A DNA stretch of 64,000 nt, taken from NCBI RefSeq assembly GCF_003334305.1, contig NZ_QOWS01000017.1; one strand, given 5' to 3'. Positions within the stretch are counted from its first letter, which is position 1; the number at the start of each line of letters is the position of its first letter. Both the position numbers and the translations under genes were made by a program. Positions 1 to 16,760 of this stretch are shown here, one piece after another. This DNA comes from Escherichia coli. GTDB lineage: Bacteria > Pseudomonadota > Gammaproteobacteria > Enterobacterales > Enterobacteriaceae. The notes under the pieces are model-generated. The model did not search any database. It was not told the DNA's origin and saw only the letters and a program-made list of their open reading frames with translations.

Positions 1-52
1 AGTTAATGCAACCGGCACGGAATGCAGTCATCTGTCACAGGGAGGAAAGCAA

Positions 53-373: not shown

Positions 374-387
374 AGGAGAACAACACC

Positions 388-2721: not shown

Positions 2722-2728
2722 CCCACCT

Positions 2729-2754
2729 GACCGGCATCTGCCGGTCTTTTTTTA
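2729..2754 (+). terminator. rho-independent terminator after primase gene
   Basis: GACCGGC-atct-GCCGGTC hairpin followed by T7 run, 8 bp after the stop codon. Confidence 0.65.
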
Positions 2755-2770
2755 TCCCTGAATTCCCCGA

Positions 2771-3070: not shown

Positions 3071-3184
3071 ATTTTTAATTGTGCGAAAAACAAGCGACAC
3101 ACGCAGTGTGTATAGATATGTGTATAGTTATATTTTTTGAATATTATAATGTATTACAAATCAATGTGTTAGCTTGTAATATTC

Positions 3185-3203
3185 ACTCCTATTATCGGCA
3201 CCA
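3185..3203 (+). other. att core copy (tRNA-Thr 3'-end-like, ACTCCTATTATCGGCACCA)
   Basis: 19-nt string matching the T-arm-to-CCA end of thrW as I recall it; no full tRNA upstream; second copy at 15262-15279. Confidence 0.6.
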
Positions 3204-3808
3204 TCAAGAAAATCAATAACTTAGCTTAACTTCTCTAAGAAATTGTATCTTCTGTTATCACTTACAAACGCCTATACGTTGTTATGGGCTTTGGTAGTGT
3301 AACACGTATGGGCGAGTAGTTCCCAGGCTCAACCTCGTAACAAGTTCCTTTGAAGCTGGAAGACGTGCCACCGTCTCTAAACCTTCTACCAAAACTCTTA
3401 GCAAGATGTTCCACACCTGGCGCGGTGTCCAATGATGCTACACGTCGTGAGACGTTGCAGAGGATAAACAGGCTAAATGATGGGAAGAGTTTTAAGTGCA
3501 ATAGTGGATTAAAGCCCACCTCTTCAAAACCTAACTTGATCGGGAAAGAATCAAGCTCTAGCACGGTTTCGTCCACCGGAGTACAACGGGTGCCTGATAA
3601 GAGAAGAACTGCTAAGACTTCATAGCTTTTGTGAAAAAGCCCTTTTTAGTGGATACGCCTACGGCGCTTATTTTTTGGTATAACCATCAAAGGCGCTTTA
3701 TGGCTCCTATTGTCTTGAAAATGTATCTTTACTTGTATTGTGTTTTATGCGTAGTCTCCCTGTGTAGTATGTAACTTGTTAATTTTCATATGAATACAGA
3801 GGCACACG

Positions 3809-3967
3809 ATGAAAAACATTGCAGCTATCAAACGGAATAACCGCAAGATTCACGCTCGTAAGTTCCTGTCTACGCCAGAAGGAAAAGCCTGGCTAGAGCG
3901 TAAACAGAGAGAAAACGAAGAAAGAAAACTCCTTAGTGAGTTGAAATGGCTTAGAGAGGATTTCTGA
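3809..3967 (+). CDS. small basic protein (52 aa), hypothetical
   Basis: ATG with AGAGG-like RBS; Lys/Arg-rich; below the size cut-off of the ORF track; translated by hand. Confidence 0.3.
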   Translation: MKNIAAIKRNNRKIHARKFLSTPEGKAWLERKQRENEERKLLSELKWLREDF

Positions 3968-4260
3968 AAATCTCCAGAACGCAACAGGACGCATTCTAAC
4001 GCTGTTTTCATTACTCGGTATAGGGATTATAGGTGATGTGTGTTTAATGCGTCTGTGAGCTTGTTTTGTGCCTTATTTTGCATTTTCATAATGCAGGAGA
4101 GAACACGGAAAGCCTTAAAATTAATTATTGGGGTATTTAAGGCTATTTTTAGGTTATTTAAGGGTATTAAACTTGATTTAATTGATTGAAATATAAACAG
4201 ATAATTATGTATCTTATTGATTTATAAGGTTATTTTTAAATAAAGGTAAATAAAAAATAA

Positions 4261-4300
4261 ATAGCCATAAATAGCTATAAATACATCTAAATACCTATAT
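4261..4300. repeat. four tandem 10-bp A-rich units (ATAGCCATAA / ATAGCTATAA / ATACATCTAA / ATACCTATAT)
   Basis: Read directly; 10-bp period equals the helical repeat, suggesting bent DNA or a phased binding site. Confidence 0.6.
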
Positions 4301-4713
4301 CCCTTCCCTTATGGCTAGATTGCGAGAAGTGCTTAACGCGATTTTCAGCGCCCCCCGATCTGGAAAATCCAGAATCCCCAAATATCAGCAAGGAATTTTC
4401 TTGCGTAATCAACATCGTTTTTACCTATTAAATCATTACACAGAAAGCCTTTCTGTAATGTCTCTCACTAAACTTTCACTAAACACGAGAATGATCGGTT
4501 TTATGTCGGATCAGATGCTAGAAATAGCACCACGTCTCACAAGGGCTGTAAGCGATGAAACCAGTGTTTATGCGGGTGCAGGTCAAAATATAGGCCAAAA
4601 TACATTTAACATAATAAACGTAATATGCACTAAGGAACACATAGAACGCCTTGAGTTGATGTATCAGGGGAAAAGTGGTGGATTTTTTACGTAGGAGCAC
4701 GAGAGGGCTTCTA

Positions 4714-4741
4714 TTGACTTTTGTATGCTATGAAATATAAT
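4714..4741 (+). promoter_or_regulatory. candidate sigma70 promoter (TTGACT-16-TATAAT)
   Basis: Consensus-like hexamers with 16-bp spacer; no convincing ORF downstream, so it may drive a non-coding transcript through the repeat region. Confidence 0.35.
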
Positions 4742-5088
4742 AGAAGGTTTTTTTATGTTGATAGTGATTGCACATTAAAGATTGAAAGCAAATTTAAACA
4801 TAAATTTTCAACACGTGAAAGAGAACTTGTTCGACAAATGATAAAACGTTTATTGAGCAACAATTTTGCAGTGATGCGCTATATGCCGAATTACACAAGG
4901 CTTTGCGAAAGTGATGTAAAAGTGAAGAAAGTAAGAATTGCAACTTTAAGCTACTTTTCATTGAATTTTTTAGTATGGAATTACACAGGAATAAGTTAGG
5001 GATATTCTATGATTTACACAGGGAATATAGGGGGATTATGGCACACACATAGAAAGACATTACACAAAGTGCTATGTGACAAATGGAT

Positions 5089-5300
5089 GTAACGAGAGGT
5101 TACATTCAGCTATCTGAAATGCTCTCTGTAAGAAAGTTGGTAGTAACGATATGTTACATAGACTAATTATTGAATGTAACGATATTACACATCGGTAGTA
5201 ACGATACGTTACATCGACTAATTATTGAATGTAACGATATTACACATCGGTAGTAACGATACGTTACATCGACAGATGATTGGATGTAACGAAAGGTTAC
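5089..5300. repeat. array of seven 15-bp palindromic sites GTAACGA(t/a)A(t/c)GTTAC (iteron/operator/centromere-like)
   Basis: Sites start at 5089, 5143, 5176, 5198, 5231, 5253 and 5286; spacings 54/33/22/33/22/33 bp are all near multiples of 11 bp; includes a 56-bp unit repeated in tandem. Confidence 0.8.
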
Positions 5301-6398
5301 ACAATAAGACTATATTATTTATAATACTAAATAAAACTATATTAGATTATTAATTAGATCATAATAATATTCTTTATATCTATATATATGATCTTTTGCC
5401 TTCCGGCGTTAGCTTCACTCCCTGGCAAGCAGCCTTACTCCGCTACCTTTCGGGCTACGTTGGCTGGCCCGTTCCGCTCACACCGAAAGCAAAGCGTTAC
5501 TTTCTTCGTGTAACTATCGTGGCGGTAACGCCCACGAAGAAATACTATTGCGCTGTGCGCAGAAGAGTAATCACCTAACCAATCATAGATTGCTTATGTG
5601 TTAACTCTCTCTACCTCTTAATTCCACTTCCTACATTTAATAACTCTGTTATTCTCTGTAGTTGTGTAATTACTCGAAGAGAGAGCGGCTAAAGCTCAAT
5701 TACACTCTGCTTTCCTCGTGTAAGTTCACTAAGCCTCAATACAATTTCACTTCCTACATTCTGTAGTCGTGTAATTGTTTTCGGTGGAAAAGCCAGAGGC
5801 GACACCGAAAGAGAATTCTGATCTTATTAATCTTATCTATCTTAGTTAATCTTCTTACTTTATCTACTTTATTATTAATAATAGCTTTATAAGCTCTGTG
5901 TAGCTCTCTGACGCAAGAAACAGCATTCAGGAAGGGAATCACCTTAGAAAAGGTGTTCTTTGCGTCATAATGTGTTTTATGAAGGATTCAGAGGTGTTTC
6001 ATAACAGGAATGTATAGAGGATATTTTAATTAATTAAAAATAAGGGGTCTAAATGCTTCTCTAACAACATTAAGCAGGGTAGGGAATGGAAACGCATTGC
6101 CTACATATAATAAGCTCACTACAGGGCTTTACAGAGCGTTTTATAAAGTGACTCTCTGTTTTATATTTACCATTACCTTTTCATATACCTAACAAATACA
6201 AAATAAGCCCCTTCAATAAGCCTCTGGCGAGCGAAACAGCCATTAGATAAGGGAATGTATTGCTTTTATCAAAATCTCGTCAGAATGCGATTGAGAGTGT
6301 TTTAGCGGATAATGAAGAATAGCACTACATAGAAGAGCACGAATTGTTAAGCAAAATCATAACATACTGAAAAAGATCAGTTTTTTTGTGAAAAGGTA

Positions 6399-6427
6399 TT
6401 GACAAACGTCTCTTTCTGTGCAATAAT
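6399..6427 (+). promoter_or_regulatory. candidate sigma70 promoter (TTGACA-17-AATAAT) for the cargo operon
   Basis: Consensus -35 and near-consensus -10; about 125 nt upstream of the first RBS-preceded ORF, with a hairpin-rich leader. Confidence 0.5.
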
Positions 6428-6554
6428 AGGTATTAGAGGGGACAGGAATAGATTCTTATCCTCTAAATAATTAAACCAATGCACCGCACTTTGAAGCCCA
6501 AGAGGCTTGCAAGGTGTTTTTTCTTTTAACCAAATCGAATAAGGAGGCTAATTA

Positions 6555-6731
6555 ATGAAATATTTCACTCCACAGGATGTAGTAGAAGCCTGGAAACGTG
6601 GTGAGATCAACCGCTTTAAAGTAAGGATGTATAGAAACACCGCTCGCCGTTGTGGTTATCCAGAGCGTGAAAAATGTTTTGACGATGCACTGAAAATTAT
6701 TGATGAACTGCGTAAAGCTGAGAAAGAATAA
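6555..6731 (+). CDS. hypothetical small protein (58 aa)
   Basis: AAGGAGG RBS 6 nt upstream of ATG; first gene after the promoter; translated by hand. Confidence 0.5.
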   Translation: MKYFTPQDVVEAWKRGEINRFKVRMYRNTARRCGYPEREKCFDDALKIIDELRKAEKE

Positions 6732-6753
6732 TAGACAAGAGAAGGAGAAAACT

Positions 6754-6921
6754 ATGAGCGAAACTAAGAAACCAATTCCGCGCACTTACCTTCACGTTGA
6801 CCCTGAAATCTTCAAGGTTTTATTTGCTGAAGCCAAGAAAAGGCAAATTATGGTCAGTGATTTGATGTTAGAAATCATTACTGAAGCAGCAGAGAACATC
6901 AAACAAAAAAAGGGTAAGTGA
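6754..6921 (+). CDS. ribbon-helix-helix-like DNA-binding protein (55 aa)
   Basis: GAAGGAG RBS; N-terminal beta-strand-like segment (RTYLHV) followed by two short helices, an Arc/CopG-type pattern; inferred from sequence pattern only. Confidence 0.5.
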   Translation: MSETKKPIPRTYLHVDPEIFKVLFAEAKKRQIMVSDLMLEIITEAAENIKQKKGK

Positions 6922-6974
6922 TCCTCATTCACTTTAGTAGCGCATTAAGCGTGATTTATAAGGAGATGATTCTA

Positions 6975-7718
6975 ATGTCTAAAATTAAATTGATTCGTGA
7001 AAAATACCAGTATGTTGATAAACAAACAGGAGAAATTAAAGACCGAACTTTGAATATACCGCATTACTTTTGTGAGATTGAATTTATCTACTCCTCAAGT
7101 GTTGATGGTGGAAAAGTTAAGTTTAGTGCAGAAATGCAAAAATTATATTGCTATGTTTCAGATTGGGAGAAATCAGGGGGGATATGTTTTGAAACACAAA
7201 CGAAGTTAAGTAAAGTTTGTGGCTGTAGCCGTAAGACAGTTAATGAACTGATTGGTCTTATGATTAAAATCGGTCTTTTAGAAGAGGTCGGAGAACGAAT
7301 TCCAAAACGTCCTTTAAAATTACGTGCGCTACCTCTCACAGATGCACATATTACTCCCCCAGGAGAATCATCACTCTCTGATCTTTCTGAGGCAGAAGAA
7401 GCACAGGAACAACCTAAAGGCCATAAACAGCCTTCTTTTGATGTTCTTGATGATTGGGATGCGCCTTTACCGTGGGAGACGGAAGAAACACCTGTTTCAT
7501 CAAGTGAAAAGGTAGCTAATGATAATGAGGAGGATGTATTAGAGAATTTTGCCTCTCTTATCATCCAGGAGAAACACACAAGAACAGGAGGAGCATCATT
7601 TATTGAGTTTGCAAATTCACTAGCTTATAGATACGGGCTAAAACGACCAAATGGTATTGAGGCATATTTTTCTAAGAATTACCCAAATGTATATGATGAA
7701 TTTGATATTCCCTTTTAA
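6975..7718 (+). CDS. winged-helix DNA-binding protein with acidic linker (247 aa), possible replication initiator or regulator
   Basis: AAGGAG RBS; helix-turn-helix-like segment LSKVCGCSRKTVNELIGLMIKIGLLEE; Asp/Glu-rich middle; stop overlaps the next RBS. Confidence 0.55.
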   Translation: MSKIKLIREKYQYVDKQTGEIKDRTLNIPHYFCEIEFIYSSSVDGGKVKFSAEMQKLYCYVSDWEKSGGICFETQTKLSKVCGCSRKTVNELIGLMIKIGLLEEVGERIPKRPLKLRALPLTDAHITPPGESSLSDLSEAEEAQEQPKGHKQPSFDVLDDWDAPLPWETEETPVSSSEKVANDNEEDVLENFASLIIQEKHTRTGGASFIEFANSLAYRYGLKRPNGIEAYFSKNYPNVYDEFDIPF

Positions 7719-7748
7719 TAAGGAGGACTATGATTCAATATTTAGTAA

Positions 7749-8009
7749 AAAAATCAAGTAGACAGAATTCAGTGTAATGACACAGGAAAACGCATCTACG
7801 AAACACTTGCTTACCTCTATAAAGGAAAGCCAACACCGCTAAAATATAGCGATGTGTTACATCGAGCAGGGTGCTCTGAAGCTGGTTTAAAATTCTGGCT
7901 GAAACAGCTATCAAATTTCGGTGTTATTGAAATGAAAGAGCTGTCTTTTTCTACATTCAATCTCAAAAGATTAGATAAAGAAATAGAATTCATCTATTCC
8001 ACTCTCTAA
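7749..8009 (+). CDS. second winged-helix-like ORF lacking a canonical start (frameshift/slippage or pseudogene candidate)
   Basis: Open frame encoding ...YSDVLHRAGCSEAGLKFWLKQLSNFGVIEM...; an AGGAGG-ATG at 7730 opens a 15-codon ORF in another frame that crosses an A7 run (7747-7753) directly before this frame opens. Confidence 0.3.
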   Translation, partial: KNQVDRIQCNDTGKRIYETLAYLYKGKPTPLKYSDVLHRAGCSEAGLKFWLKQLSNFGVIEMKELSFSTFNLKRLDKEIEFIYSTL

Positions 8010-8141
8010 AATCTCTCTATGTAATTAAAATATAAAAGGAAAACATTATTATGATAGTAGCTATGTATTGGTTATTGTTCTTTCTCACGTTAGAAGCATA
8101 CTTTGGGGTGTTTTCCTTTAAAAGAAAAGGAAAAGTAAATA

Positions 8142-8558
8142 ATGGCAAAAAGAAAAAACAACGTTGTTAAGAAAATCGGTGATTCAGCTTCTCTTCTAAG
8201 TAAACCTAAACCTAAATCTATTCTAAGACGTAAAGACTTTAAAGAGCTAGTTACGCTCACCAAGCAAAATAGCGCCCCTGGCGAATGGAAAACAGAGATC
8301 ATAGAACATTCTCCCTCTGTGCCTTGTGGAGATGAATTTAACGCCTTGCAAGAAATCTTATCTTCAACACCTGGCGTATTCTGGAAACCTAGAAAAAGAA
8401 AAGAGTATATCGTTGATAGCTCTGATTTACGCAAATACCAGATTTTAGGATTTGAAGATTATAACCACTACGTCGGTTATCTCGCCACCAATGGCCTAAA
8501 TAATTTAGTTCCTGAATTCCAAATTTTAGATAATGCTGATCACTATGGAGACTTTTAA
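8142..8558 (+). CDS. hypothetical protein (138 aa), basic N-terminus
   Basis: ATG preceded by AAAGGAAAAG; no motif recognised. Confidence 0.5.
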   Translation: MAKRKNNVVKKIGDSASLLSKPKPKSILRRKDFKELVTLTKQNSAPGEWKTEIIEHSPSVPCGDEFNALQEILSSTPGVFWKPRKRKEYIVDSSDLRKYQILGFEDYNHYVGYLATNGLNNLVPEFQILDNADHYGDF

Positions 8559-8559
8559 T

Positions 8560-8898
8560 ATGAACAAAAACACGTATGACACAATTTATTCACTAATTAA
8601 TTATTATGAGGATGATTACCTCCTGCCTTTAAACCGCGCTGAACTTGAAGCATACAAAGAAAACACGCCAGGGGCGCTAAATGAGGCGTTTAAACACTGG
8701 GATTTAGCTGTGAATGCCTTTGAGCACCTTTCTAAAAGAGTAGAGATGCTCTGTAAGCGTGAAAACGCATACCTGACAGCCGATCAGATATGGGAGCTAT
8801 CAAACTGGATAGAAGATATTGAATCTGATGTTCGCTATGTAGGGGATGGCCTGGTTGAATTAGCTCAACGCTTAGGCGCTACTATCACAGAAGAATAA
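8560..8898 (+). CDS. hypothetical acidic protein (112 aa)
   Basis: ATG 8560 with GGAG 7 nt upstream, 1 nt after the previous stop; an in-frame upstream ATG at 8533 would overlap the previous gene. Confidence 0.5.
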   Translation: MNKNTYDTIYSLINYYEDDYLLPLNRAELEAYKENTPGALNEAFKHWDLAVNAFEHLSKRVEMLCKRENAYLTADQIWELSNWIEDIESDVRYVGDGLVELAQRLGATITEE

Positions 8899-8927
8899 AA
8901 AAAGCAACAAAAAAGTTGTAAAATATC

Positions 8928-8956
8928 TTGACATTCCATCTATTGTATGTTAATAT
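8928..8956 (+). promoter_or_regulatory. candidate sigma70 promoter (TTGACA-17-TAATAT)
   Basis: Consensus -35; located in a 350-bp gap inside the operon. Confidence 0.45.
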
Positions 8957-9093
8957 AATTATATAGGGGTGATTATTTTTCCTTTATTGGTTCGATATTA
9001 AAAATTCTTCCTGTCATTAAAGGGGAGTAAAATCTCCGCTCCCCGCTTCTCCTCCTTAAGTAAATACTGTGTCATTATACCTCTTTTTTCCTT

Positions 9094-9125
9094 TGTTATG
9101 CATACATCTTGGAGTATGCATAACA
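9094..9125. promoter_or_regulatory. 12-bp perfect inverted repeat TGTTATGCATAC-N8-GTATGCATAACA (operator or RNA hairpin)
   Basis: Read directly; lies between the 8928 promoter and the next gene. Confidence 0.6.
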
Positions 9126-9165
9126 TAGGGTAATTACATAGGTATGAGTTAATAAAAGGCGGCTC

Positions 9166-9189
9166 TAAATGCTGCCTTTTATTTTGCCC
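9166..9189 (+). terminator. weak intrinsic terminator or attenuator
   Basis: AGGCGGC-tctaaat-GCTGCCT stem with one G-U pair, followed by TTTTATTTT. Confidence 0.4.
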
Positions 9190-9247
9190 GTTATGCAACT
9201 TAAAAGTTGTATTTCTTACTTTAAAAAAGGTAACAAGGTTTATATAA

Positions 9248-9460
9248 ATGTTGTTTTTAAACGATAAAGAGCAAATCATCAAGTATAAAGATGAAATGCT
9301 GAAAATTAATCCACAAATTACCGAAATGGTAGCTAAATACGCTGGGTGTTCTGTCGAGGAAGTAGAAAGATGTGTTGAAAAATATTTTTCTCCTTCTACT
9401 CCGTCTACACCTTCCCTTAATGAATTAATCAAATTAAAAGCTAAGGAGATTACTAAATGA
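9248..9460 (+). CDS. hypothetical protein (70 aa)
   Basis: ATG with AAGG upstream; stop overlaps the start of the next gene (ATGA). Confidence 0.5.
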   Translation: MLFLNDKEQIIKYKDEMLKINPQITEMVAKYAGCSVEEVERCVEKYFSPSTPSTPSLNELIKLKAKEITK

Positions 9461-9819
9461 TTATTGATTTAGACACTCTGTTTCCAGTTAGAAAGACTTT
9501 CACAGATATTGTAAGTTATTGTACTGATCCGTTTGCCTCTGTAGAAAGCAAGGTTTTTGCTTCTCTTCCTGCTGATGTTGAGTGCGGCGACTTGATCACC
9601 AGTACTGGCGCTAAATATGAATCAGGAGATGATATCTATGTTGTTATGAGTGAATTTGTAACGGCTGGAGAAAACAAGCCTGTAGATGTGCTACGTAGTA
9701 ATGCTGGTCTTGTCTGCATCAAAGCTGATGCGCTGAATGCTGTAAGTGAAGCAGCAAAAACAGCATTAATTAAAAAAGGCTTCCAGCTTGAAGGGTTCCA
9801 TTCTGTTTTCACTTCTTAA
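9457..9819 (+). CDS. hypothetical protein (120 aa)
   Basis: AAGGAG RBS; translationally coupled to the upstream ORF. Confidence 0.55.
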   Translation: MIIDLDTLFPVRKTFTDIVSYCTDPFASVESKVFASLPADVECGDLITSTGAKYESGDDIYVVMSEFVTAGENKPVDVLRSNAGLVCIKADALNAVSEAAKTALIKKGFQLEGFHSVFTS

Positions 9820-9837
9820 TAAAAGGAATAATAATAA

Positions 9838-10869
9838 ATGATTCTAGGTAATGATTACGTTGATTTAGCTCCGCTTTTCCAGGCACACAGCACTAGAAAC
9901 TTTCTGCTCTCTACCCTCGACTTCACTGATCCGGTGGGCGTTAGTTCTCATAAAGTAGCTGTTTCTCAGCTTGTCGAAAGCAACGAATCTCTGTTCAACA
10001 AAGAAACCTCTCGTTTCTCTTCTGAACACAATGTTACTAAGCGTGAACAAGGTAAAGAATGGCTGATTGAAATCCCGTATTTTCTTCGTGAAGATGTGAT
10101 CCGTCCTTCTGATGTTCAAGGCAAGCGTAAGCCTGGCACTGATTTTCAGGAAACACTCACTGATATCTATGCGGAATATATCGCTAAACACCACGTAGCG
10201 TATCAGCGTACAAAAGAGAGCGTGTTGGCTGCATCTCTGTTTAGCGGTAAAACTTACACGCCTAAAACTGATGATGTTCTTATCGAGTGGGGCAAGCTGT
10301 TTAACGTGGCACCTATGAAAGCCACCTTGAACGCTTCCAGCACTGACACAATGACCGTTTTCAAGCAATTTGACCAGCTTGCTACGGATATGATTGCTAA
10401 GGCACAAAACCAGGCTGCAACCATTGAGCGTGTTGTTGTGTTCTGTAAACCTGCGGCATTCAACGCTATTCGTTACAGTGTTGGTATGGTCAATGCTTTC
10501 CAATATGCAAGCCCTGTAGACGATGCCAACGTGGTGTTTAATGTGCGTTCCCTGCTACCAGGTGTAACTACTTTCACCATTCCAGGAACTAACATTGACC
10601 TGATCAAAGTGACTGATCCGCTACACCTTGCACATATGGCTTCTGATGCGGTTGCTGTGCCTAAATTCGCTAAGGGGGCAGGTGTTTACCAATCTATCTA
10701 TGGGGCAGCTTCCAGCACCTTTGAACTGATCAATGCCGCTCCTGCTGAGGTGTATAGCTATAGCTATGAATCTTCTTCTCGTGGTGATGCTGTTAACGTT
10801 GTTACAGAGAATAGCCAGATGGTGGTAAACCACGGCGTTGGTTTCTCCGTTCAAATCACTGTTAAATAA
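9838..10869 (+). CDS. hypothetical protein (343 aa), no motif recognised
   Basis: Long ORF in AT-rich DNA with AAGGA RBS; followed by a strong terminator. Confidence 0.65.
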   Translation: MILGNDYVDLAPLFQAHSTRNFLLSTLDFTDPVGVSSHKVAVSQLVESNESLFNKETSRFSSEHNVTKREQGKEWLIEIPYFLREDVIRPSDVQGKRKPGTDFQETLTDIYAEYIAKHHVAYQRTKESVLAASLFSGKTYTPKTDDVLIEWGKLFNVAPMKATLNASSTDTMTVFKQFDQLATDMIAKAQNQAATIERVVVFCKPAAFNAIRYSVGMVNAFQYASPVDDANVVFNVRSLLPGVTTFTIPGTNIDLIKVTDPLHLAHMASDAVAVPKFAKGAGVYQSIYGAASSTFELINAAPAEVYSYSYESSSRGDAVNVVTENSQMVVNHGVGFSVQITVK

Positions 10870-10887
10870 TATTTTAACGTGTAATAG

Positions 10888-10925
10888 AGGCGTGGCGTGA
10901 ATAACACGCTTCGCCTTTTTTTATT
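10888..10925 (+). terminator. rho-independent terminator
   Basis: Nested hairpin AGGCG-tg-GCGTG-aataa-CACGC-tt-CGCCT followed by a T-rich run. Confidence 0.65.
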
Positions 10926-10955
10926 TATTTTTAAATTTTGAGAGGTGATTAAAAT

Positions 10956-11159
10956 ATGGAAGTGATTCTGAAATCAAAAAATGGTGTACACGTTTATTTA
11001 GATGCTAATGATTCAAGAGGCTTGTTAAATCTGAAATATCTATGTTCTCTCTTGGATGTTCCATATGAAGGCGTAAAAGCCCGAATGTTCAGATTAAACG
11101 AGAGTATTGATCAAGCTCTACACCATTTCTTAAGCAAAGAAGGTGGTAAAAATGATTAA
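10956..11159 (+). CDS. hypothetical protein (67 aa)
   Basis: GAGAGGTGA RBS; 15 bp upstream of the 612-aa gene. Confidence 0.45.
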   Translation: MEVILKSKNGVHVYLDANDSRGLLNLKYLCSLLDVPYEGVKARMFRLNESIDQALHHFLSKEGGKND

Positions 11160-11173
11160 TAAGGGGATTTTAA

Positions 11174-13012
11174 ATGTTAGAAATTAACACTTCTAAAATT
11201 AAGAACACAGTAACATTTAGTGTAGATAAAGACAGCTTGAAAAAAGCGAAAGACTCTATTACAGGCTTAAAGGAATTCACAGAAAACATCAAGCCAGCTA
11301 AATTAAGGTTTGATAGTGTCACTAAAGGCTATAAGAAAGCACAAAGCGAAGTAGACAAGATTGCTCAACAGAAAGCTAAAACAGAAAAGCAGAATCAAAG
11401 AGCACAAGCTGCCGCAGCAAGAGCACAGGCAAGGCAACAGACACAAATAGCAGCACGTAAAGAGAAAGCAGAATTAAAGCTCCTCGATGTGTCAAGCTCT
11501 ATCAGTGCAATGCACCGCCTCTCTGTAGCGGAACAATACAAAGCTATTGCACAGGCTAGAGAGATAGCAAAACAATATGAGCAAGGGGCTATCTCGCTTG
11601 CACGTATGAATAGTCAGATGAAACGCCTACAACAGCAACAACGTAAGATTAATGGCAACAGAAAAGCTCAATTAGCCCCCGTTAAGGGAGGAGGATCAGG
11701 GAATTCCGCCACGATGGGTGCTCTGTTATTTGGAGGCGCTACAGCGGCTGCTGGCGTGATGGCTGTTAGTAAAGCGTCGGAGTTTGTTAGTAACAGTTTC
11801 GCTAACGCAGAGACACAAGGTGAGCTAATTCAACGTGCAAGGCTTGGCGGTGTAGACGTTAACCAGATGTACAACATTACAGAATGGGCCTATAGAAACG
11901 GCGTTGACTCTATGATGGGTGATCAAGGGGCTAGGAAATACCTGGATCAGATGAAAGATGTTAGGGAACGTGCCGCAAAATCCTATAGTGAAGCTGAATA
12001 TGTAGTCGATAAAAAAACTGGTAAAGGCGGCGAATGGAAAGGCGGTGATAACGCTATTAATGAACTTCTAAACATCGGTGTTATTAACAAGAGCGACCTT
12101 AAAAAATTTGCTGATAATCCAGCCGGATTAATTTCTAAGGCTGTTAATGGAATGATGAAAAAAGGGTTTTCAGACTCCCAAATTGGACAACGTTTAGAAG
12201 ACCTGGGTGATGATTTGATGCTTACATCAAAATATTGGCAACGTTCCGTTAAAGATGTACAAACAAGCATCGAGCAGCAAAAAGCCTCTGGAAAATGGCT
12301 AACAGAAACACAGCAAGATTCTATTGTTAAATTCAGAGAACTAAACAGACAGCTTTCACAGCTTTCTGATGCAAGACAAGTAGCATTTGTAGACGGCTTT
12401 ATGAAATCTCTCGATCCAAAAGTAACGGAAGAGTTTATGAAAAACCTTTCTAATCTCACTCCGTATTTTACAAAGCTGGGAGAAGCTACAGGAAGTCTCT
12501 TTGAAGCTATTATGAAGATTGTAAACTGGTTTAATCGTAATGATGATAAGACAGATGCTATTCAGAAAAATTTAGGTGATGCACCGCCATTAAGCAATGA
12601 AGGAATGAAACAGAATCTTTCTAATCTCGTTCCTGATCAATATAAAGGCGCTGGCACCGGAACAACTAAGCCAGATAACAGCAATTCCCTGTTTAACACT
12701 ATTAAGGGATTGCTTTTCGATGATAAGTCTTCTTCTGTGTCAGATGTAAAAATGTCAGTCAGCGAAGCACCGATAACCAATCTCAAACAGGGCGCTTTAA
12801 ATAATCTTGCAATGACAACTCCGGCTTATAATTTATCTCCTGTGTTTAATCTGAATCCTACATTTGAAGTGGTAACAGAGGTTCCTCTTACTATTAATTC
12901 TGACACATCAAGATTAAGCGATTATGTGGATTTTACAGCGAGATCAAGTCGGGATAGCTTCTTGAAATCATTAACATTAACCAGCTTATCAGGACAATCT
13001 AACGGCGGGTAA
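11174..13012 (+). CDS. large coiled-coil protein with central Gly-rich hydrophobic segment (612 aa); tape-measure-like or membrane-interacting, function unknown
   Basis: AAGGGG RBS; N-terminal approx. 150 aa rich in Q/A/R/K/E; segment GGGSGNSATMGALLFGGATAAAGVMAV; no NTP-binding or catalytic motif seen. Confidence 0.7.
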   Translation: MLEINTSKIKNTVTFSVDKDSLKKAKDSITGLKEFTENIKPAKLRFDSVTKGYKKAQSEVDKIAQQKAKTEKQNQRAQAAAARAQARQQTQIAARKEKAELKLLDVSSSISAMHRLSVAEQYKAIAQAREIAKQYEQGAISLARMNSQMKRLQQQQRKINGNRKAQLAPVKGGGSGNSATMGALLFGGATAAAGVMAVSKASEFVSNSFANAETQGELIQRARLGGVDVNQMYNITEWAYRNGVDSMMGDQGARKYLDQMKDVRERAAKSYSEAEYVVDKKTGKGGEWKGGDNAINELLNIGVINKSDLKKFADNPAGLISKAVNGMMKKGFSDSQIGQRLEDLGDDLMLTSKYWQRSVKDVQTSIEQQKASGKWLTETQQDSIVKFRELNRQLSQLSDARQVAFVDGFMKSLDPKVTEEFMKNLSNLTPYFTKLGEATGSLFEAIMKIVNWFNRNDDKTDAIQKNLGDAPPLSNEGMKQNLSNLVPDQYKGAGTGTTKPDNSNSLFNTIKGLLFDDKSSSVSDVKMSVSEAPITNLKQGALNNLAMTTPAYNLSPVFNLNPTFEVVTEVPLTINSDTSRLSDYVDFTARSSRDSFLKSLTLTSLSGQSNGG

Positions 13013-13046
13013 TTCCCGCCATAACATTACAAGGAAAATTATTATT

Positions 13047-13760
13047 ATGGCGACCGCCGGGATTTTAACCATACGTGCAGCAAATACTCCAGAACAACAC
13101 GTTCAGGCTGTTTACAAAGCAGAACAAGATATAAATTCTACAAAAAACGAAAATAGCAAAGCTAATAAAACAAAAGGAGAGAACGGATTTGCTATTGTTA
13201 CCAGTGGCTTGGCATCTTCTGGCAATGACGTTTATGAAAATTATATGGCCCTGGCCTTTGACAGTGTAGACGATGTGAACGTGAGACGTTCGGCAGATGT
13301 CACAAGCTACCCCGTAGAAAATGGTGCTACTGTGTCTGATCACGTTCAAATTAAAAACAATAAGTTTTCTCTTAAAGGAAGGATCACTGAAACACCGATT
13401 AAAAGCGATCCTGGCTTGTTAAAGAGTGCAGGGGTGAACGGGAACAGAAGATCATTAGCCATAGACTACTTGAATCAGATTATGGACAGTAGACAGCCTT
13501 TTCTTCTTGTTACAGAAAATAAAACTTTTGAGAACGTTGTTTTAACAGGCATCGAATACACAGAAGAGGCAAGCGAATCCCTGGTATTTGATCTTAGCTT
13601 TGAGCAGATCAGATTAGTTTCTTATGGCACTGTATCCACTATTGCACTTAAAACACAACCATCTAAGAACATCGGGGCGAATATGAAAAAACGTGTTAAC
13701 ACTGAAAAATCAAGTAGTGAAGGTGAAGACACTATTACTCCTGCCTTTAAGCAGAAATAG
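13047..13760 (+). CDS. hypothetical protein (237 aa)
   Basis: AAGGA RBS; last gene of the + strand operon, convergent with the integrase. Confidence 0.6.
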   Translation: MATAGILTIRAANTPEQHVQAVYKAEQDINSTKNENSKANKTKGENGFAIVTSGLASSGNDVYENYMALAFDSVDDVNVRRSADVTSYPVENGATVSDHVQIKNNKFSLKGRITETPIKSDPGLLKSAGVNGNRRSLAIDYLNQIMDSRQPFLLVTENKTFENVVLTGIEYTEEASESLVFDLSFEQIRLVSYGTVSTIALKTQPSKNIGANMKKRVNTEKSSSEGEDTITPAFKQK

Positions 13761-13803
13761 CCGTAAACGCCTCTAAAACGCTCTGTAACGATGTAATTAT
13801 AAA

Positions 13804-13840
13804 AGAGGCTGCCAATCTATGTTGAAGCCTCTTTATTGTG
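13804..13840. terminator. bidirectional terminator between convergent operon and integrase
   Basis: AGAGGCT-N15-AGCCTCT hairpin flanked by T-rich runs on both strands. Confidence 0.5.
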
Positions 13841-13841
13841 T

Positions 13842-15176
13842 TTATGGCGTTGTTTTACGCCTTAAATTTGATTTTTTATTGATTGATAAGCCTTTCTCTA
13901 TTTCAGGGTAGCGTAGAAGCTCAATATAGTTTTTAAGCTCTACTGGAGAAGCTGCATTCTTGCTATATGTGCGGAATGTCTCTGTATTGCCGCGTGTATG
14001 GCCCAGGAGAAGGGCGATCCTGTCTTCTGGAATTTGATTTCGATCAAGAAGCTGTGCTACTCCGTGTCTCAGAGAATGAAACACTTTCCTTTCTGTTCCC
14101 TTTTCCCCTAAAGCCTTTCGTTTAGCTCTTGTAAATCTCTGCGTGTGCCACGTGGAACGTTTACCATCAGCACGCTCTGTAATGCTGGCGTGATAGAACA
14201 AAAAGCCATTATGAGGCTTTTCACGCAGCGACAACACCAACGGAGTGATAAGGCTATGTACAGGCACAACACGTGCCGCAGCTTTCGTTTTTCCCTGTGT
14301 GATTTCAAAACACAGCACACCTTCGATCTCTTTCACATCGTCTATTGTGAGACTTGCTATCTCATTGATCCGCATACCTGTATATAAACCGATAAGACAC
14401 AAAGCCATCATTTCTTTGTTTTCTGCTGAATTACCGGAAAATACTTGCAACACCTGCAATAGCTCTTTGTTAGAAAATGCCTCGTAGCTCTCTCTACTTT
14501 GTGCCACATCAAGCCTATGCCCTCGCCAGGGGGAGAGCGCCCTTTCTGGCGCATCGTGGTAACGTGATGAAGCTAACTCCCATAGCTGGGCTATTGGGCT
14601 GATATAATTTGCAATTGATTGTTGTGAAAGAGTTTTTTGCATGTGTTCTATCCAGCCTGTAACAGTGGTGCGGCTCACATCTTGCAATGCAATATCAGGC
14701 TTTTTACGGTAGGAGAGAAACATCTCTACCGCTTTTCTTGCCTTAGCTAAAGTGGCTGGCTTCTTCTTCGTGCTGTTAATTGTCAGGTAGATTTCAAGAA
14801 TTTTAAGCAATGACGGACACGAAGACGCTGTATCTTGCATTCTGGTAGCTGTTTTGGCGTATTTAGCCTTACTGCGTAACAGCTCCAGCGTGTTCTCTAT
14901 TGTGCTGTTTACAGGGGCGACACTCTCCCGTAGGCAATGGTATTCATCTGCAATCTGATCACGCTTTCTACGTGCAACACGAAGATTATTTGTGTGTAGA
15001 CTTCTGACAAACGTCCTTTTTCCTTCAAAAAAGGGCTGCATATACACAGGCAGCGTGATCCTTAAATAGTAGTTACCGTAAGAATCACAGATTAAGTATT
15101 GGTTAGGCTTGTATCTCATAAAATCTCCGGCTAAAGTGTCGGAGCGTTTGTAATGTGAAAATTGATTGTAACGCAT
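13842..15176 (-). CDS. tyrosine-type site-specific integrase
   Basis: Box I GMRINE, box II HSLRHG, LLGH, and a C-terminal tyrosine in TFRTYS; ATG at 15176 (a TTG at 15206 gives the 454-aa track ORF); sits directly inside the right att copy. Confidence 0.85.
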   Translation of the reverse strand: MRYNQFSHYKRSDTLAGDFMRYKPNQYLICDSYGNYYLRITLPVYMQPFFEGKRTFVRSLHTNNLRVARRKRDQIADEYHCLRESVAPVNSTIENTLELLRSKAKYAKTATRMQDTASSCPSLLKILEIYLTINSTKKKPATLAKARKAVEMFLSYRKKPDIALQDVSRTTVTGWIEHMQKTLSQQSIANYISPIAQLWELASSRYHDAPERALSPWRGHRLDVAQSRESYEAFSNKELLQVLQVFSGNSAENKEMMALCLIGLYTGMRINEIASLTIDDVKEIEGVLCFEITQGKTKAAARVVPVHSLITPLVLSLREKPHNGFLFYHASITERADGKRSTWHTQRFTRAKRKALGEKGTERKVFHSLRHGVAQLLDRNQIPEDRIALLLGHTRGNTETFRTYSKNAASPVELKNYIELLRYPEIEKGLSINKKSNLRRKTTP

Positions 15177-15218
15177 AGAAAATGATAATTTTTCTATAAG
15201 ATTCAATCAATTAGTAAT

Positions 15219-15279
15219 GGTCGTAGGTGATGGCATTAACACGAGATTAATCGAGTGTTTTACTCCTATTATCGCACCA
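15219..15279 (+). pseudogene. tRNA-Thr 3'-half remnant (ptwF-like) containing the right att core copy
   Basis: GGTCGTAGGT, then a 33-nt unrelated insert, then ACTCCTATTATCG-CACCA; not a foldable tRNA. Confidence 0.55.
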
Positions 15280-15405
15280 TTAAAATCAAAGAGTTACCCC
15301 ATATTTAAATACACCACGTTTCCTCCTGTGCCGCATTTGTGCCATTGTAACCTTGGCAATTCATCAAAATACTGTTCTGACATCAGGCAGTGCAGGTGCA
15401 GCTAT

Positions 15406-15816
15406 TTAAACCAATTGCTGCCGCCATTCTTTGACGTAGTCAATCAGGGCGCGGAGCTTTGGTGCAATATTGCGACGCTGTGGGAAATACAGATAGAAGC
15501 CCGGAAATTGTGGAAGAAAGTCATCAAGCAGCGATACAAGCTTACCGCTTTCAATATATGGCCTGAAAGTTTCCTGAGTGGCAATTGTTATTCCTCCGCC
15601 GGCAAGAGCCAGCCTCAACATCAGACGCAGATCATTAGTCGTAATCTGCGGTTCAATCGCAAGGTCGAAAGTTCTCCCGTTTTCTTCAAATGGCCAGCGA
15701 TAAGGCGCAACCTCCGGGGACTGACGCCAGCCGATACACTTATGGGTATTTCCCCCGGAGGCGAGAAAGCGCTCTCCACGCCCGGCCGCAAGGATCAGGA
15801 CGACGGGGGCAGGCAT
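15406..15816 (-). pseudogene. yagP: LysR-family regulator fragment (C-terminal substrate-binding domain only)
   Basis: 136-aa reading frame from MPAPVV... matching the yagP remnant as I recall it; no N-terminal HTH domain present; overlaps the paoD 3' end. Confidence 0.6.
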
Positions 15817-16751
15817 GAATCCTCCTCCTGATGGAGACGTACAGAGGCGACTTCTGCCAGCACGGAGAGTGCCAGAGTATGCGCATCCCGGGCTTTGGGG
15901 AATATCCCGACGGGTGCCCGGATTTGCGTTGTTTCCTCCCTGGACCATCCCAGCTCGTGGAGCTTTTGCAGACGTAACGTGTGGGTTCGATAGCTGCCCA
16001 ATGCGCCGAGATAAAAGGGTTTTGCTTCTCGCGCGGCCTGCAACACTGGCAGCTCCCGGTTGAGATCATGGCACAGCAAAATGACCGCCGTATCGGTATC
16101 GATCTGAGCGCTGGCTGAGGCCGGAAAAAGATCGAAGATATGGCTGTCATAGCCTGTGGCTGCTGCAAGACTCGCAGTTGCCTGCGCCTCAAGAGAACGT
16201 CCGTAAATCATCAGCCTGACGCATGGCCTGAACCCCACCTCAAAGCCATTGAGATTCCAGCCCGTTCGGGTTTGCGTGGGCAGGCACACCAGCGATTGTG
16301 CTTGCGGATCGTAGCGCAGCCCCGCCGGTTTTCTCTGTTCCAGACGGTTCAGCACGGCGAGCAGAGGCTGTGCCGAGCGTAGTTTATGGAGCGTCAGCGT
16401 GATCCCACCGCCGCAGGGCAGAACGATGTCAAACCACGGCGAACCTTCGCCATAGCGAATTTCGCGATCGCGGCCTGAGCCCATCATCTCCAGCGCTTCA
16501 AAAGCGGCAGCGGCCTCCACGCAGCCGCCAGAGACAAAACCGCAGTAACGACCATCTTCGCGAACCACCATCTGCGCCCCGAGCGGGCGCGCTGCGCCGC
16601 CGCGTATCTCCACCAGCGTCACCAGCACCGCTCCTTTACCGGACATTAGCGCCTCTACGGCGAAGCGCAGAATGGTCCGGTGGTCATCGGTGAGAAACGC
16701 CTGCTCTGGCTTATGCCAGTGTTCGTCTTTATCAAAAAGCGGGTATGACAT
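15795..16751 (-). CDS. paoD: XdhC-like molybdenum cofactor insertion chaperone
   Basis: 318 aa; position directly downstream of paoC in the paoABCD operon. Confidence 0.85.
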   Translation of the reverse strand: MSYPLFDKDEHWHKPEQAFLTDDHRTILRFAVEALMSGKGAVLVTLVEIRGGAARPLGAQMVVREDGRYCGFVSGGCVEAAAAFEALEMMGSGRDREIRYGEGSPWFDIVLPCGGGITLTLHKLRSAQPLLAVLNRLEQRKPAGLRYDPQAQSLVCLPTQTRTGWNLNGFEVGFRPCVRLMIYGRSLEAQATASLAAATGYDSHIFDLFPASASAQIDTDTAVILLCHDLNRELPVLQAAREAKPFYLGALGSYRTHTLRLQKLHELGWSREETTQIRAPVGIFPKARDAHTLALSVLAEVASVRLHQEEDSCLPPSS

Positions 16752-16760
16752 TGTTTCTCC

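Follow-up and report, generated by a model that had tools for sequence, protein, structure and literature searches.

An element at thrW and the operon at its core

The window (the whole stretch of 64,000 nucleotides of Escherichia coli DNA that was analysed) carries an element of ~12.1 kb, spanning 3186-15281 with attL (3204-15281 is also given), with 19-bp thrW repeats at both ends and a tyrosine integrase at one end:

3186-3203: attL core CTCCTATTATCGGCACCA, the 3' end of tRNA-Thr thrW (exact motif match)
13842-15119, minus strand: tyrosine integrase, PGAP-annotated with this start (the ORF reaches 15206); phrog_1, E 1e-33
15264-15281: attR core ACTCCTATTATCG-CACCA, read from the sequence; one base is deleted in this strain

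In 15 other loci the complete 19-bp attR core occupies this position. In strain 20.1 and in many IMG/VR loci an intact thrW directly precedes the island; here a P4-like satellite lies between thrW and the island. The IMG/VR matches are prophage calls from isolate genomes, and neither IMG/VR nor JGI metagenome contigs yielded an excised (attP) junction. The island locus is the CP4-6/intF "cryptic prophage" locus.

A sequence-only reading of the window had described twelve same-strand ORFs of 58, 55, 247, a broken wHTH ORF, 138, 112, 70, 120, 343, 67, 612 and 237 aa running up to the convergent integrase, and all of them were found; in strain A7, whose copy is 100% identical, PGAP annotates the same genes. 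The AT-richness noted for the block was borne out (GC 0.34-0.43 vs 0.57-0.62 in the flanks), as was the near-consensus promoter with a hairpin-bearing leader (TTGACA-17-AATAAT at 6399-6427, two leader hairpins). The unit had been taken to be 6399-13760, which covers the operon only; the whole unit is 3186-15281. Nor is the operon a cargo of unrecognisable proteins outside any nameable family: four of them (343, 237, 612 and 247 aa) fall into recognisable phage families by profile matches, and the operon is the core of the element itself, comprising regulators, a replication initiator and capsid and tail genes. Its first part contains the following features:

6399-6427, plus strand: promoter-like site P1, TTGACA-17-AATAAT, extended TG
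6555-6731, plus strand: 58-aa protein, putative regulator of several allelic types, with orthologues in Klebsiella and Enterobacter islands
6754-6921, plus strand: 55-aa RHH-like protein, putative regulator, with orthologues across genera; RHH assigned by sequence reading
6975-7718, plus strand: 247-aa wHTH replication-initiator-like protein (Rep); phrog_270 E 7.5e-7, phrog_391 E 2e-5
7730-8009, plus strand: conserved 92-aa wHTH gene, ATG at 7730, with a frameshift in this copy from one additional A within a run of A
8142-8558, plus strand: 138-aa core protein with basic N-terminus, conserved across genera; dN/dS 0.13-0.47
8560-8898, plus strand: 112-aa acidic helical core protein, conserved across genera; dN/dS 0.05-0.33
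8928-8956, plus strand: promoter-like site P2, TTGACA-17-TAATAT, TG, in the 350-nt gap before the capsid and tail genes
9248-9460, plus strand: 70-aa protein with an Enterobacter island orthologue; dN/dS ~0.1

The leader after P1 folds into two hairpins, at 6437-6464 and at 6486-6517, of which the second is terminator-like and has a U-run behind it (z only -1.5), and the gap around P2 holds hairpins and a terminator-like element at ~9157-9189. Alleles of the 58-aa protein share 60-100% identity among E. coli islands, and the 3' end of its gene together with the RBS that comes next shares 86% identity with a locus of phage VEcB, a 51-nt match in a regulatory region. Rep also matches O-like/DnaD-like families; in other island types it is replaced by unrelated Rep proteins in similar position. 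The wHTH ORF that had been called start-less is indeed present but is actually the conserved 92-aa gene; the frameshift was found by comparison with L004, L021 and L025, and dN/dS is 0.04-0.13. Neither the 55-aa nor the 112-aa protein had a family match in profile searches; a scaffold-like role of the latter is speculation. The AF2 model of the 138-aa protein was poor (pLDDT 61, pTM 0.29). Family profiles of the eight small core proteins and of Rep gave no significant match in the phage.

Capsid and tail genes related to phi92-like phages

The second part of the operon encodes structural proteins:

9457-9819, plus strand: 120-aa protein directly upstream of the capsid gene, positioned as phi92 gp123
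9838-10869, plus strand: 343-aa major capsid protein (Phage_cap_E, HK97 fold family); PF03864 full length, E 4e-14; phrog_29 E 9e-14
10894-10910, plus strand: terminator-like hairpin 3' of the capsid gene
10956-11159, plus strand: 67-aa protein placed like phi92 gp133, immediately ahead of the tape measure gene; under strong constraint, dN/dS 0.02-0.06
11174-13012, plus strand: 612-aa tape measure homologue (phi92 gp134-like); phrog_16051 E 4e-54; PDB 21vq_V Phi92_gp134 E 2e-38
13047-13760, plus strand: 237-aa tail tube initiator homologue (Dit-like, phi92 gp135-like); PF21821 (Dit_like) E 7e-29; PDB 21vq_N Phi92_gp135 E 3e-78

The 120-aa protein and gp123 both end in VFTS, and hhalign of the two was not significant. 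The best folds for its AF2 model (pLDDT 67.7) were ~124-aa accessory chains in the capsid structures of Bas63, Sf14 and PhiTE (prob 0.95-1.0, TM 0.42-0.51); judged from this mediocre model, it is probably a capsid decoration protein. The capsid family HMM matches the VEcB capsid protein (E 1.8e-15). The capsid protein itself is 20% identical to phi92 gp124 (dN/dS 0.12-0.16), and the nearest phage capsid proteins, those of Pakpunavirus, phi92 and a Limnohabitans phage, are 20-25% identical. The 67-aa protein has orthologues across genera; similarity to gp133 was not detectable.

Phage homologues of the tape measure share 26-42% identity with it, and its family HMM matches VEcB with E 1e-89. Aligned with phi92, its first 50 residues are 64% identical, 8 of its last 12 residues agree and the middle is 18-44% identical; the termini are thus the most helper-like parts, and the phi92 protein is longer by 22+46+10 residues. 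The first 87 nt of the gene have 86% DNA identity to the phage gene. The tube initiator is 61% identical to that of Justusliebigvirus (dN/dS 0.05-0.09) and also matches the tube initiators 9cuy_K and Pam3 gp17. In a search of 50,697 phage records, the only matches to the tape measure and to the tube initiator came from Stephanstirmvirinae. Searches of the ORFs against PHROGs, Pfam and NCBIfam revealed no terminase, portal, sheath or tube, and no baseplate, fibre or lysis genes were recognisable in the island.

The genes stand in the order of the phi92 structural module, with decoration and capsid first and small ORF, tape measure and tube initiator further on (identity 26-61% for gp134 and gp135, 20% for gp124), but the island has no counterparts of gp125-gp132 (neck, sheath, tube, chaperone) or of anything beyond gp135, and adds integrase, Rep and regulators. 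Confident homology to a characterised phage structural module, which the sequence-only reading had named as an outcome that would refute it, exists for three genes, as a collapsed subset of the phi92 module and not as a prophage; both a satellite and a cryptic structural module had been left open by the sequence-only reading.

The left arm carries a copy of a phage genome-end site

The left arm is gene-poor but holds an iteron array and a pac-like element of ~80 bp:

3809-3967, plus strand: 52-aa ORF, hypothetical protein, the sole left-arm gene annotated by PGAP (strains A7 and 20.1)
4309-4390, plus strand: pac-like element, homologous to the inner boundary of the direct terminal repeat in Stephanstirmvirinae, the putative helper phages
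5084-5303: iteron array, 55-bp period, five copies of a TGTAACGAnAnGTTACA-type palindrome; repeat families D2-D4
5544-5757: non-coding block, conserved from genus to genus and containing repeats of CACTTCCTACATT..CTGTAGTYGTGTAATT units

The pac-like element, whose phage orientation is the minus strand of the window, is 93-96% identical to phi92 318-363 over 46 bp (93.5% for this copy), and an alignment (A1) revealed invariant blocks common to islands and phages of several genera. One of them is the invariant 10-mer GTGCTTAACG at 4329-4338. In three phage lineages this 10-mer holds the boundary of the terminal repeat, namely in phi92 (343 bp), WPEC4 (328 bp) and Klebsiella phage phi1_175008 (343 bp); for BME3, a terminal repeat of 342 bp was determined by PhageTerm (PMC12210895). 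The equivalent cut in the island is predicted at 4333|4334. The element occurs as a single copy in a 149-kb phage genome and in each island, in fixed position and strand. The other terminal-repeat boundary has no recognisable island copy, candidates being at chance level, and a search of the Sodalis island revealed no pac-like element.

The iteron array is probably the replication origin; type B and Klebsiella islands are without the iteron cluster and carry a different Rep. The block at 5544-5757 is 75-86% identical to Klebsiella and Enterobacter islands. Variable defence-type cargo, which had been considered for the operon, is absent there but does exist in the left arm of relatives (type IV restriction-like HNH and Dam methylase); PADLOC gave no defence family match.

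The island is conserved across genera and covaries with phage genera

The unit was present in 725 of 5426 complete E. coli genomes (13%), in 285 of these with at least 80% coverage, and also in Klebsiella, Enterobacter, Citrobacter, Cronobacter, Sodalis and Serratia; the capsid family extends across Enterobacterales. Gene order is the same in Klebsiella, Enterobacter and Sodalis islands, and from genus to genus the compact set of genes is retained, with 30-60% identity between the proteins. With dN/dS of 0.02-0.22 for structural and small genes overall (individually up to 0.47 for the 138-aa and 0.33 for the 112-aa protein), the sequences show the unit to be under purifying selection. The earlier suggestion of a conserved unit thus holds, as part of an integrase-bearing island that appears undescribed.

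In E. coli, two island types, in both of which the integrase is 97-99% identical, covary in sequence with two phage genera: in type A, pac-like element and tube initiator both match Justusliebigvirus, and in type B both match Phapecoctavirus (81% identity over 85 bp for the pac-like element). The Klebsiella and Enterobacter islands are without the tube initiator, and the tape measure of the former is not more similar to Klebsiella phages than to those of E. coli.

Comparison with known satellites

P4-like satellites, whose helper is P2, carry a copy of the helper packaging site (P4 cos). The island resembles P4 as an enterobacterial, tRNA-integrated element of ~12 kb with such a copy, but has none of the P4 features alpha primase, sid, psu, delta and use of the P2 capsid protein, and its putative helper is virulent with direct terminal repeats instead of cos ends. 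Like PLE, it is an integrative island in the 12-18 kb range, putatively specialised on a virulent myovirus, with a replication initiator and a probable origin of its own; for lack of terminase and portal genes it would need the helper for its packaging motor and virion parts, and the helper yield is expected to be lower. PLE, however, uses a large serine recombinase, whereas the island has a tyrosine integrase at thrW, and by its description PLE has the helper's own coat protein remodelled by the external scaffold TcaP (bioRxiv 10.1101/2023.03.01.530633), whereas the island brings a major capsid protein, a tape measure and a tube initiator of its own. An own HK97-fold capsid in place of the helper's, in the same hosts, is shared with the cf-PICIs, which in Enterobacteria are described as encoding the whole capsid and packaging set and stealing tails alone (bioRxiv 10.1101/2022.09.08.507074). 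Unlike these, the island lacks terminase, portal, protease and connector, encodes tail-core proteins and mimics the terminal-repeat site of the helper. Satellites of virulent phages have been described with PICMI in Vibrionaceae and MiniFlayer/Mulch in Streptomyces; according to the abstracts, the latter encode encapsidation machinery, PICMIs are minimal without capsid-remodelling genes, and a satellite-encoded tape measure or tube initiator, present in the island, is mentioned for neither (PMC10803314, PMC10690885). The Streptomyces satellites are from unrelated hosts.

A putative satellite of virulent myoviruses

A thrW-bounded island with its own capsid, tape measure and tube initiator genes and a copy of a genome-end site from phi92-type phages, which are large and virulent, is most likely an undescribed satellite that spreads by hijacking them. 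From the sequence comparisons we give a probability of about 0.6 to the reading that it represents a new satellite family of virulent phi92/phAPEC8-like myoviruses and, jointly, that the helpers are virulent ~150-kb Stephanstirmvirinae with direct terminal repeats, for type A, to which this island belongs, phi92/Justusliebigvirus. Against this reading stand the distance of the capsid protein from that of the helper, the copying of a single repeat boundary, the negative search for an excised junction in IMG/VR and JGI metagenome contigs, the lack of a tube initiator in Klebsiella and Enterobacter islands, the negative result for a pac-like element in the Sodalis island and the Klebsiella tape measure, which is not especially near to Klebsiella phages.

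The island could instead be a defence island that acts through decoys and is itself not transduced: its capsid, tape measure and tube initiator homologues would poison the assembly of invading phi92-like phages, the copied terminal-repeat boundary would titrate or misdirect the phage terminase, and Rep and iterons would merely raise the dose. The structural homologues are indeed helper-like where helper contacts would be, interference with tail assembly is described as a defence strategy of satellites and prophages (PMC11364771), relatives carry restriction-type cargo, and an excised or packaged form was not found in IMG/VR or JGI metagenome contigs. We regard the decoy as unlikely since a full-length capsid protein with a decoration-like partner under purifying selection, integrase and att sites and a single conserved cut site are what transfer needs, beyond the needs of a decoy, and PADLOC gave no match; moreover, interference and transfer coexist in known satellites, which makes this largely a subset of the satellite model. 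Quite unlikely, too, is a satellite or defective relative of an unsampled phage group with an island-close capsid, in which the likeness to Stephanstirmvirinae would reflect shared ancestry and not the current helper. It would fit the low identities of capsid (20-25% to the nearest, from Pakpunavirus, phi92 and the Limnohabitans phage) and tape measure (26-42%), as well as Felix O1-like capsid hints in fold and sequence that concern the 120-aa protein and, in weak form, the capsid protein. However, the pac-like element (93-96% to Justusliebigvirus over 46 bp; in type B 81% to Phapecoctavirus over 85 bp), the tube initiator (61% to Justusliebigvirus), the 5' 87 nt of the tape measure gene (86%) and the 51-nt regulatory match to VEcB argue for recent, specific links to sampled phages.

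A decaying prophage remnant whose surviving ORFs have no current function is disfavoured and very improbable. Its position in a "cryptic prophage" locus, one frameshifted gene and the gene-poor left arm would agree with decay, but the same compact gene set persists in different genera, with 30-60% identity between the proteins and low dN/dS, the left arm holds conserved, functional-looking non-coding elements, and the related phages are strictly virulent 150-kb viruses with a structural module of 30 kb, of which the island has a non-contiguous subset in kept order.

As a satellite, the island would be de-repressed upon helper infection, with the 58-, 55- and 92-aa proteins and the terminator-bearing leader as candidate switches, would be excised by the integrase and would then replicate from the iterons via Rep. 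Its capsid protein and the decoration-like 120-aa protein would form capsids sized for 12 kb on the helper portal; with the capsid protein only ~20% identical to that of the helper, its fit to helper portal and scaffold is putative. The helper terminase would recognise and cut the mimicked GTGCT|TAACG site and package island DNA; that only one of the two terminal-repeat boundaries is copied counts against a simple way of generating the ends. Tape measure and tube initiator, helper-like at the N-terminal 50 residues and the C-terminal tip, would fit helper baseplates and recruit helper chaperone, tube and sheath, so that the tails would be satellite-specific or chimeric. Diversion of helper parts would lower the phage yield and thereby protect the host population.

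Boundaries and locus of the integrative element

The island is delimited by the end of the tRNA-Thr gene thrW and by an imperfect copy of it:

3186-3203: thrW 3' end, CTCCTATTATCGGCACCA
15264-15281: copy of the thrW end with one base deleted, beside the integrase gene

Since thrW repeats are present at both ends, the element comprises 3204-15281 (~12.1 kb). In many other genomes 19-bp thrW direct repeats flank the element on both sides, and in several an intact thrW directly precedes it; together with the tyrosine integrase they provide the island's own function for integration and excision. In K-12, different genes are found behind intF at the same locus. Window 1-3181 holds the end of another, P4-like satellite, with a DUF5375 gene, an alpha primase-helicase gene (388-2721) and two 120-nt repeats (2767-2886 and 2947-3066). 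As this element is inserted between thrW and the island, what appear to be two different satellites stand in tandem at one tRNA gene; a tRNA scan of the window returned zero tRNA genes. Directly outside attR (15406-15948) lies a truncated LysR-type gene (yagP pseudogene), followed by paoDCBA.

The operon and its conservation

The sequence-only reading had described an AT-rich block of twelve same-strand ORFs that runs towards a convergent integrase, behind a near-consensus promoter and a hairpin-rich leader. Indeed, the ORF listing of window 4000-17000 contained the twelve ORFs and the convergent integrase (425/454 aa), the GC content is 0.34-0.43 compared with 0.57-0.62 in the flanks, a TTGACA-17-AATAAT site with an extended TG is located at 6399-6427, and the leader has two hairpins with a U-run after the second. 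The same genes were annotated by PGAP in E. coli strain A7, which is 100% identical to the window. One wHTH ORF had been taken as start-less; it is really a conserved 92-aa gene with an ATG at 7730, broken in this strain by one extra A. The run (within 7730-8009) has seven A (A7) here and six (A6) in strain 20.1, and the frameshift may stem from a sequencing error, mark a pseudogene or reflect slippage-prone phase variation. The view that no protein belongs to a nameable family is contradicted by the following assignments:

247-aa protein: replication initiator-like (Rep; O-like and DnaD-like PHROGs, 7.5e-7)
120-aa protein: encoded directly upstream of the capsid gene, the same position as the phi92 decoration protein gp123
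9838-10869: major capsid protein, 343 aa (Phage_cap_E PF03864 over the whole length, E 4e-14; phrog_29)
612-aa protein: tape measure (PHROG family, 4e-54; solved Phi92_gp134, 2e-38)
237-aa protein: tail tube initiator (Dit_like PF21821, 7e-29; solved Phi92_gp135, 3e-78; tube initiators of other myoviruses)

NCBIfam gave no match for ten operon proteins, including Rep, Rfam (E<0.1, window 1-17 kb) gave nothing but a chance-level rli47 match, and the AF2 model of the 138-aa protein was too poor for a fold search.

Of 5426 complete E. coli genomes, 725 (13%) contain the operon, 285 of them with at least 80% coverage. Members of the capsid family also occur in Klebsiella (721 sequences in a single cluster), Enterobacter, Citrobacter, Cronobacter, Dryocola, Sodalis and Serratia. 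Where named, the sources of the family are bacterial genome assemblies, several of the contigs being megabase-sized. The earlier suggestion that the gene set might be a conserved unit was borne out: the same order, again followed by a convergent integrase, occurs in Klebsiella, Enterobacter and Sodalis neighbourhoods, which have orthologues of the 58-, 55-, 138-, 112-, 70-, 120-, 343-, 67- and 612-aa proteins and in which Rep is replaced by other wHTH proteins. In comparisons with further E. coli copies, the structural genes have dN/dS values of 0.02-0.22 and the small ORFs mostly values of 0.05-0.3. Judged from these ratios, the operon consists of working genes and not of debris.

Two island types with a common integrase occur in E. 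coli:

Type A (this window, L004-L014, L016 and L020): best match of the pac-like element in Justusliebigvirus, 93-96%; tube initiator closest to Justusliebigvirus, 61%
Type B (L017-L019): best match of the pac-like element at Phapecoctavirus genome ends, 81% over 85 bp, in two places per record; tube initiator closest to Phapecoctavirus, 53%

One type A island (L012) is recombinant within the pac-like element, and L015, which combines type B proteins with a type A-like pac element, is thus also a mosaic. The pac-like versions of Klebsiella and Enterobacter islands are closest to Klebsiella phage. The 350-nt gap before the capsid and tail genes (8899-9247) contains hairpins as well as a strong promoter-like site (8928-8956) and a terminator-like element (~9157-9189). 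It is kept among type A islands only and may give rise to a small RNA of ~225 nt or to an attenuated leader.

Structural proteins related to Stephanstirmvirinae

A search of 50,697 phage records with the tape measure gave 134 matches, essentially all of them phi92/phAPEC8-type Stephanstirmvirinae, the presumed helpers. Over its first 87 nt the gene has 86% identity with its phage counterpart. Compared with the phi92 protein, which is longer by 78 residues spread over three insertions, identity is 64% over the first 50 residues, 8 of 12 at the C-terminal end and 18-44% in the middle. The best conserved parts are therefore the ends that would be expected to contact the helper chaperone and hub. 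A host-matched tape measure was looked for in Klebsiella islands, and none was seen. The tube initiator is also closest to phi92/phAPEC8-type phages in the same 50,697 records (61% identity), with weaker matches to 643 records in other genera; E. coli and Sodalis islands have it, those of Klebsiella and Enterobacter do not. The order 120-aa protein, capsid, 67-aa protein, tape measure and tube initiator is that of phi92 gp123, gp124, gp133, gp134 and gp135, minus gp125-gp132; similarity of the 67-aa protein to gp133 was not significant in BLASTP and hhalign comparisons.

The nearest phage capsid proteins have just 20-25% identity to the 343-aa protein; the profile of the island capsid family matches the capsid protein of phage VEcB with an E-value of 1.8e-15. 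In this strain dS of the capsid gene is 0.5-0.7 versus 0.1-0.2 for the neighbouring genes. Diversifying selection was rejected, since dN/dS relative to further E. coli copies is 0.12-0.16 and synonymous changes account for the excess divergence, which indicates an older allele. The allele is also a rarer one and falls into a 94% cluster of 83 sequences, while the common 88% cluster has 2818. The 120-aa protein shares a C-terminal VFTS with phi92 gp123, their overall similarity being not significant in BLASTP and hhalign. Its AF2 model is of moderate quality (pLDDT 67.7), and its six best matches by fold are accessory chains (~124-147 aa) of the Bas63, Sf14 and PhiTE capsids, which we take by inference as decoration proteins. 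The 120-aa protein is a probable capsid decoration protein.

A perfect 21-nt inverted repeat connects the left arm (3489-3509) with the 3' part of the tube-initiator gene (13634-13654). The left copy, whose flank resembles a degenerate gp135-like C-terminus, is kept in every E. coli island that was compared; a perfect right copy occurs in this strain only, which ruled out an invertible segment.

A homologue of the phage terminal-repeat boundary

When the left arm was compared with all phages by blastn, one specific match was obtained, within the following element:

4309-4390: pac-like element, homologue of the inner boundary of the phage direct terminal repeat

Window 4314-4359 has 93.5% identity with phi92 318-363, and Stephanstirmvirinae of Klebsiella and Citrobacter match over 68-78 bp with 78-81% identity. 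Since the direct terminal repeat of phi92 is annotated as 1-343, the match straddles its inner boundary. An alignment of islands and phages from several genera has a non-coding conservation pattern, with invariant blocks (GTGCTTAACG, C.CCC and AAATATC) separated by variable spacers, and the phi92 boundary lies inside an invariant 10-mer, GTGCT|TAACG. The boundary was checked independently: the Phapecoctavirus-like phage WPEC4 has an exact 328-bp terminal repeat ending at CGCGTT|AAGCAC, and Klebsiella phage phi1_175008 an exact 343-bp repeat with the same end point. For BME3, a close phi92 relative, a 342-bp terminal repeat was determined by PhageTerm (PMC12210895).

The 149-kb VEcB genome has a single copy of the element. 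Each island likewise has one copy, of constant strand and located upstream of the capsid gene at a distance of 5.0-6.8 kb. The boundary homology, the shared 10-mer and the covariation with phage genus are consistent, at sequence level, with a helper packaging signal, and GTGCT|TAACG is a candidate for the terminase cut site of Stephanstirmvirinae, of which a limited literature check found no description. Both terminal-repeat boundaries read GTTR|AGCMC (phi92 junction sequence L029, 2649-2660 and 2961-2972; left genome ends of phi92, WPEC4 and phi1_175008), each with a CCCnAAATATC box nearby in inverted orientation; the two motifs may be the terminase recognition logic of the subfamily. Candidates for a second boundary in the island, searched for with these motifs, were at chance level.

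Left arm and exchanged sequences

The 3.2-kb 'gene-poor' left arm contains an iteron array at 5084-5303 (five copies, period of 55 bp), which is missing from islands with another Rep type. A GC-rich patch at about 5385-5585 within the AT-rich DNA was rejected as a structured RNA, as it folds only weakly better than shuffles (z -1.8 and -2.05). Beside it, a non-coding block (5544-5757) with repeated CACTTCCTACATT..CTGTAGTYGTGTAATT units is conserved in Klebsiella and Enterobacter islands. A ~40-bp stretch (3435-3476) resembles the apparent flanking repeats of an Enterobacter island (L025 2022-2060 and 15412-15445) and may be left over from a different attachment site. In relatives (L021 2968-5083; L025 2311-4726; L024 821-4133), the left arm encodes a short Xer-like tyrosine recombinase (186-205 aa) and variable cargo, namely a type IV restriction-like HNH protein with a 258-aa partner, an orphan Dam methylase or a large serine recombinase; no trace of this recombinase or cargo was found in the window. 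Within the operon, 6702-6752 (3' end of the 58-aa gene and RBS of the 55-aa gene) shares 86% identity with VEcB 74917-74871, the end of a 61-aa RHH-like gene and the next RBS, which hints at regulatory modules exchanged between island and phage.

The island as a putative phage satellite

Scans of the island ORFs with PHROGs, NCBIfam and Pfam (and with PADLOC for five proteins) revealed no gene for a terminase, portal, sheath, tube, baseplate wedge or fibre and none for lysis; the set of virion and packaging genes is incomplete. An integrase with att sites, a Rep-like protein with iterons, a copy of a phage genome end and a partial structural set, combined with the lack of terminase, portal, sheath, tube and lysis genes, form the signature of a phage satellite. 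We therefore propose, with a probability of roughly 60%, that the element is a satellite of virulent Stephanstirmvirinae. Infection by the helper would de-repress the island, which would then excise and replicate; satellite-sized capsids would be formed, the helper terminase would cut the island at the mimicked site, and the tails would be chimeric. More tentative, at slightly below even odds, is the full proposal that the island represents the first satellite family of virulent, terminal-repeat-packaging enterobacterial myoviruses, which makes its own capsid shell and tail inner core, steals portal, terminase, tube, sheath and baseplate and is packaged via a copied cut site, and the first with such a split.

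The weak points of the satellite reading are the distant capsid, the single recognisable boundary, the absence of an excised form from public contigs and the tube initiator missing in some genera. The excised attP junction had 0 matches in IMG/VR and JGI metagenome contigs, and the IMG/VR loci are all prophages called in isolate genomes and thus do not speak for encapsidation. Next to these null results has to be set a decoy-type defence without transfer, which we regard as unlikely; PADLOC-DB 2.0 gave no match among the 58-, 55-, 138-, 112- and 343-aa proteins. When the six-frame translated VEcB genome was searched with family HMMs for Rep and the eight small core proteins, nothing significant was found. 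A satellite of an unsampled phage group, to be considered with the distant capsid on one side and the phi92-type tail proteins and boundary on the other, appears still less probable. A prophage remnant is very improbable. An intact or defective Stephanstirmvirinae prophage was rejected since there are no contiguous phage segments and only three proteins, stretches of 46, 51 and 87 nt and the tube-initiator gene match the 149-kb phage genome.

Among known systems, the proposed satellite would work most like PLE and cf-PICI. It resembles PLE in its virulent helper and lack of packaging genes, but PLE has a large serine recombinase, a RepA_N-type initiator and the external scaffold TcaP, whereas the island integrase is a tyrosine recombinase; generic PHROGs and NCBIfam scans of the island named no match to PLE-type families, the two being set apart by description. 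Like cf-PICI it encodes its own capsid protein, but beyond this and the decoration-like protein, the terminase small subunit, portal, protease and head-tail connectors of cf-PICI were not found. A P4-like satellite was rejected because alpha primase-helicase, sid/psu/delta and a P2-type cos are not present between the island att sites and no ORF matched; the P4-type genes of the locus belong to the neighbouring element (window 1-3181). A classical PICI, with alpA, pri-rep and terS or a capsid-redirection gene by the integrase, was rejected as well, since AlpA, primase and TerS gave no matches; its integrase is divergent from the repressor, whereas that of the island is convergent with the operon. 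A literature search found no description of a satellite of phi92/rV5/phAPEC8-type phages, nor of a bacterial satellite encoding a tape measure and a tube initiator. We regard the island as a putative new family of phage satellites.

Implications

To our knowledge, very few satellites of strictly virulent phages are known (PLE, PICMI and MiniFlayer), and our literature search found no description of one in E. coli. The island would give a second model system for satellites of virulent phages, frequent in E. coli and with hundreds of Klebsiella sequences, and part of the classical CP4-6/intF 'cryptic prophage' locus would be reclassified in many strains. It raises the mechanistic questions of how a foreign capsid protein assembles on the helper portal and why tape measure and tube initiator are replaced. 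Phages of the phi92/phAPEC8 type are popular candidates for phage therapy. Since the island is common and its apparent helpers are candidates for therapy, its carriage might influence how well therapy works and might promote gene transfer by 'lytic' phages.
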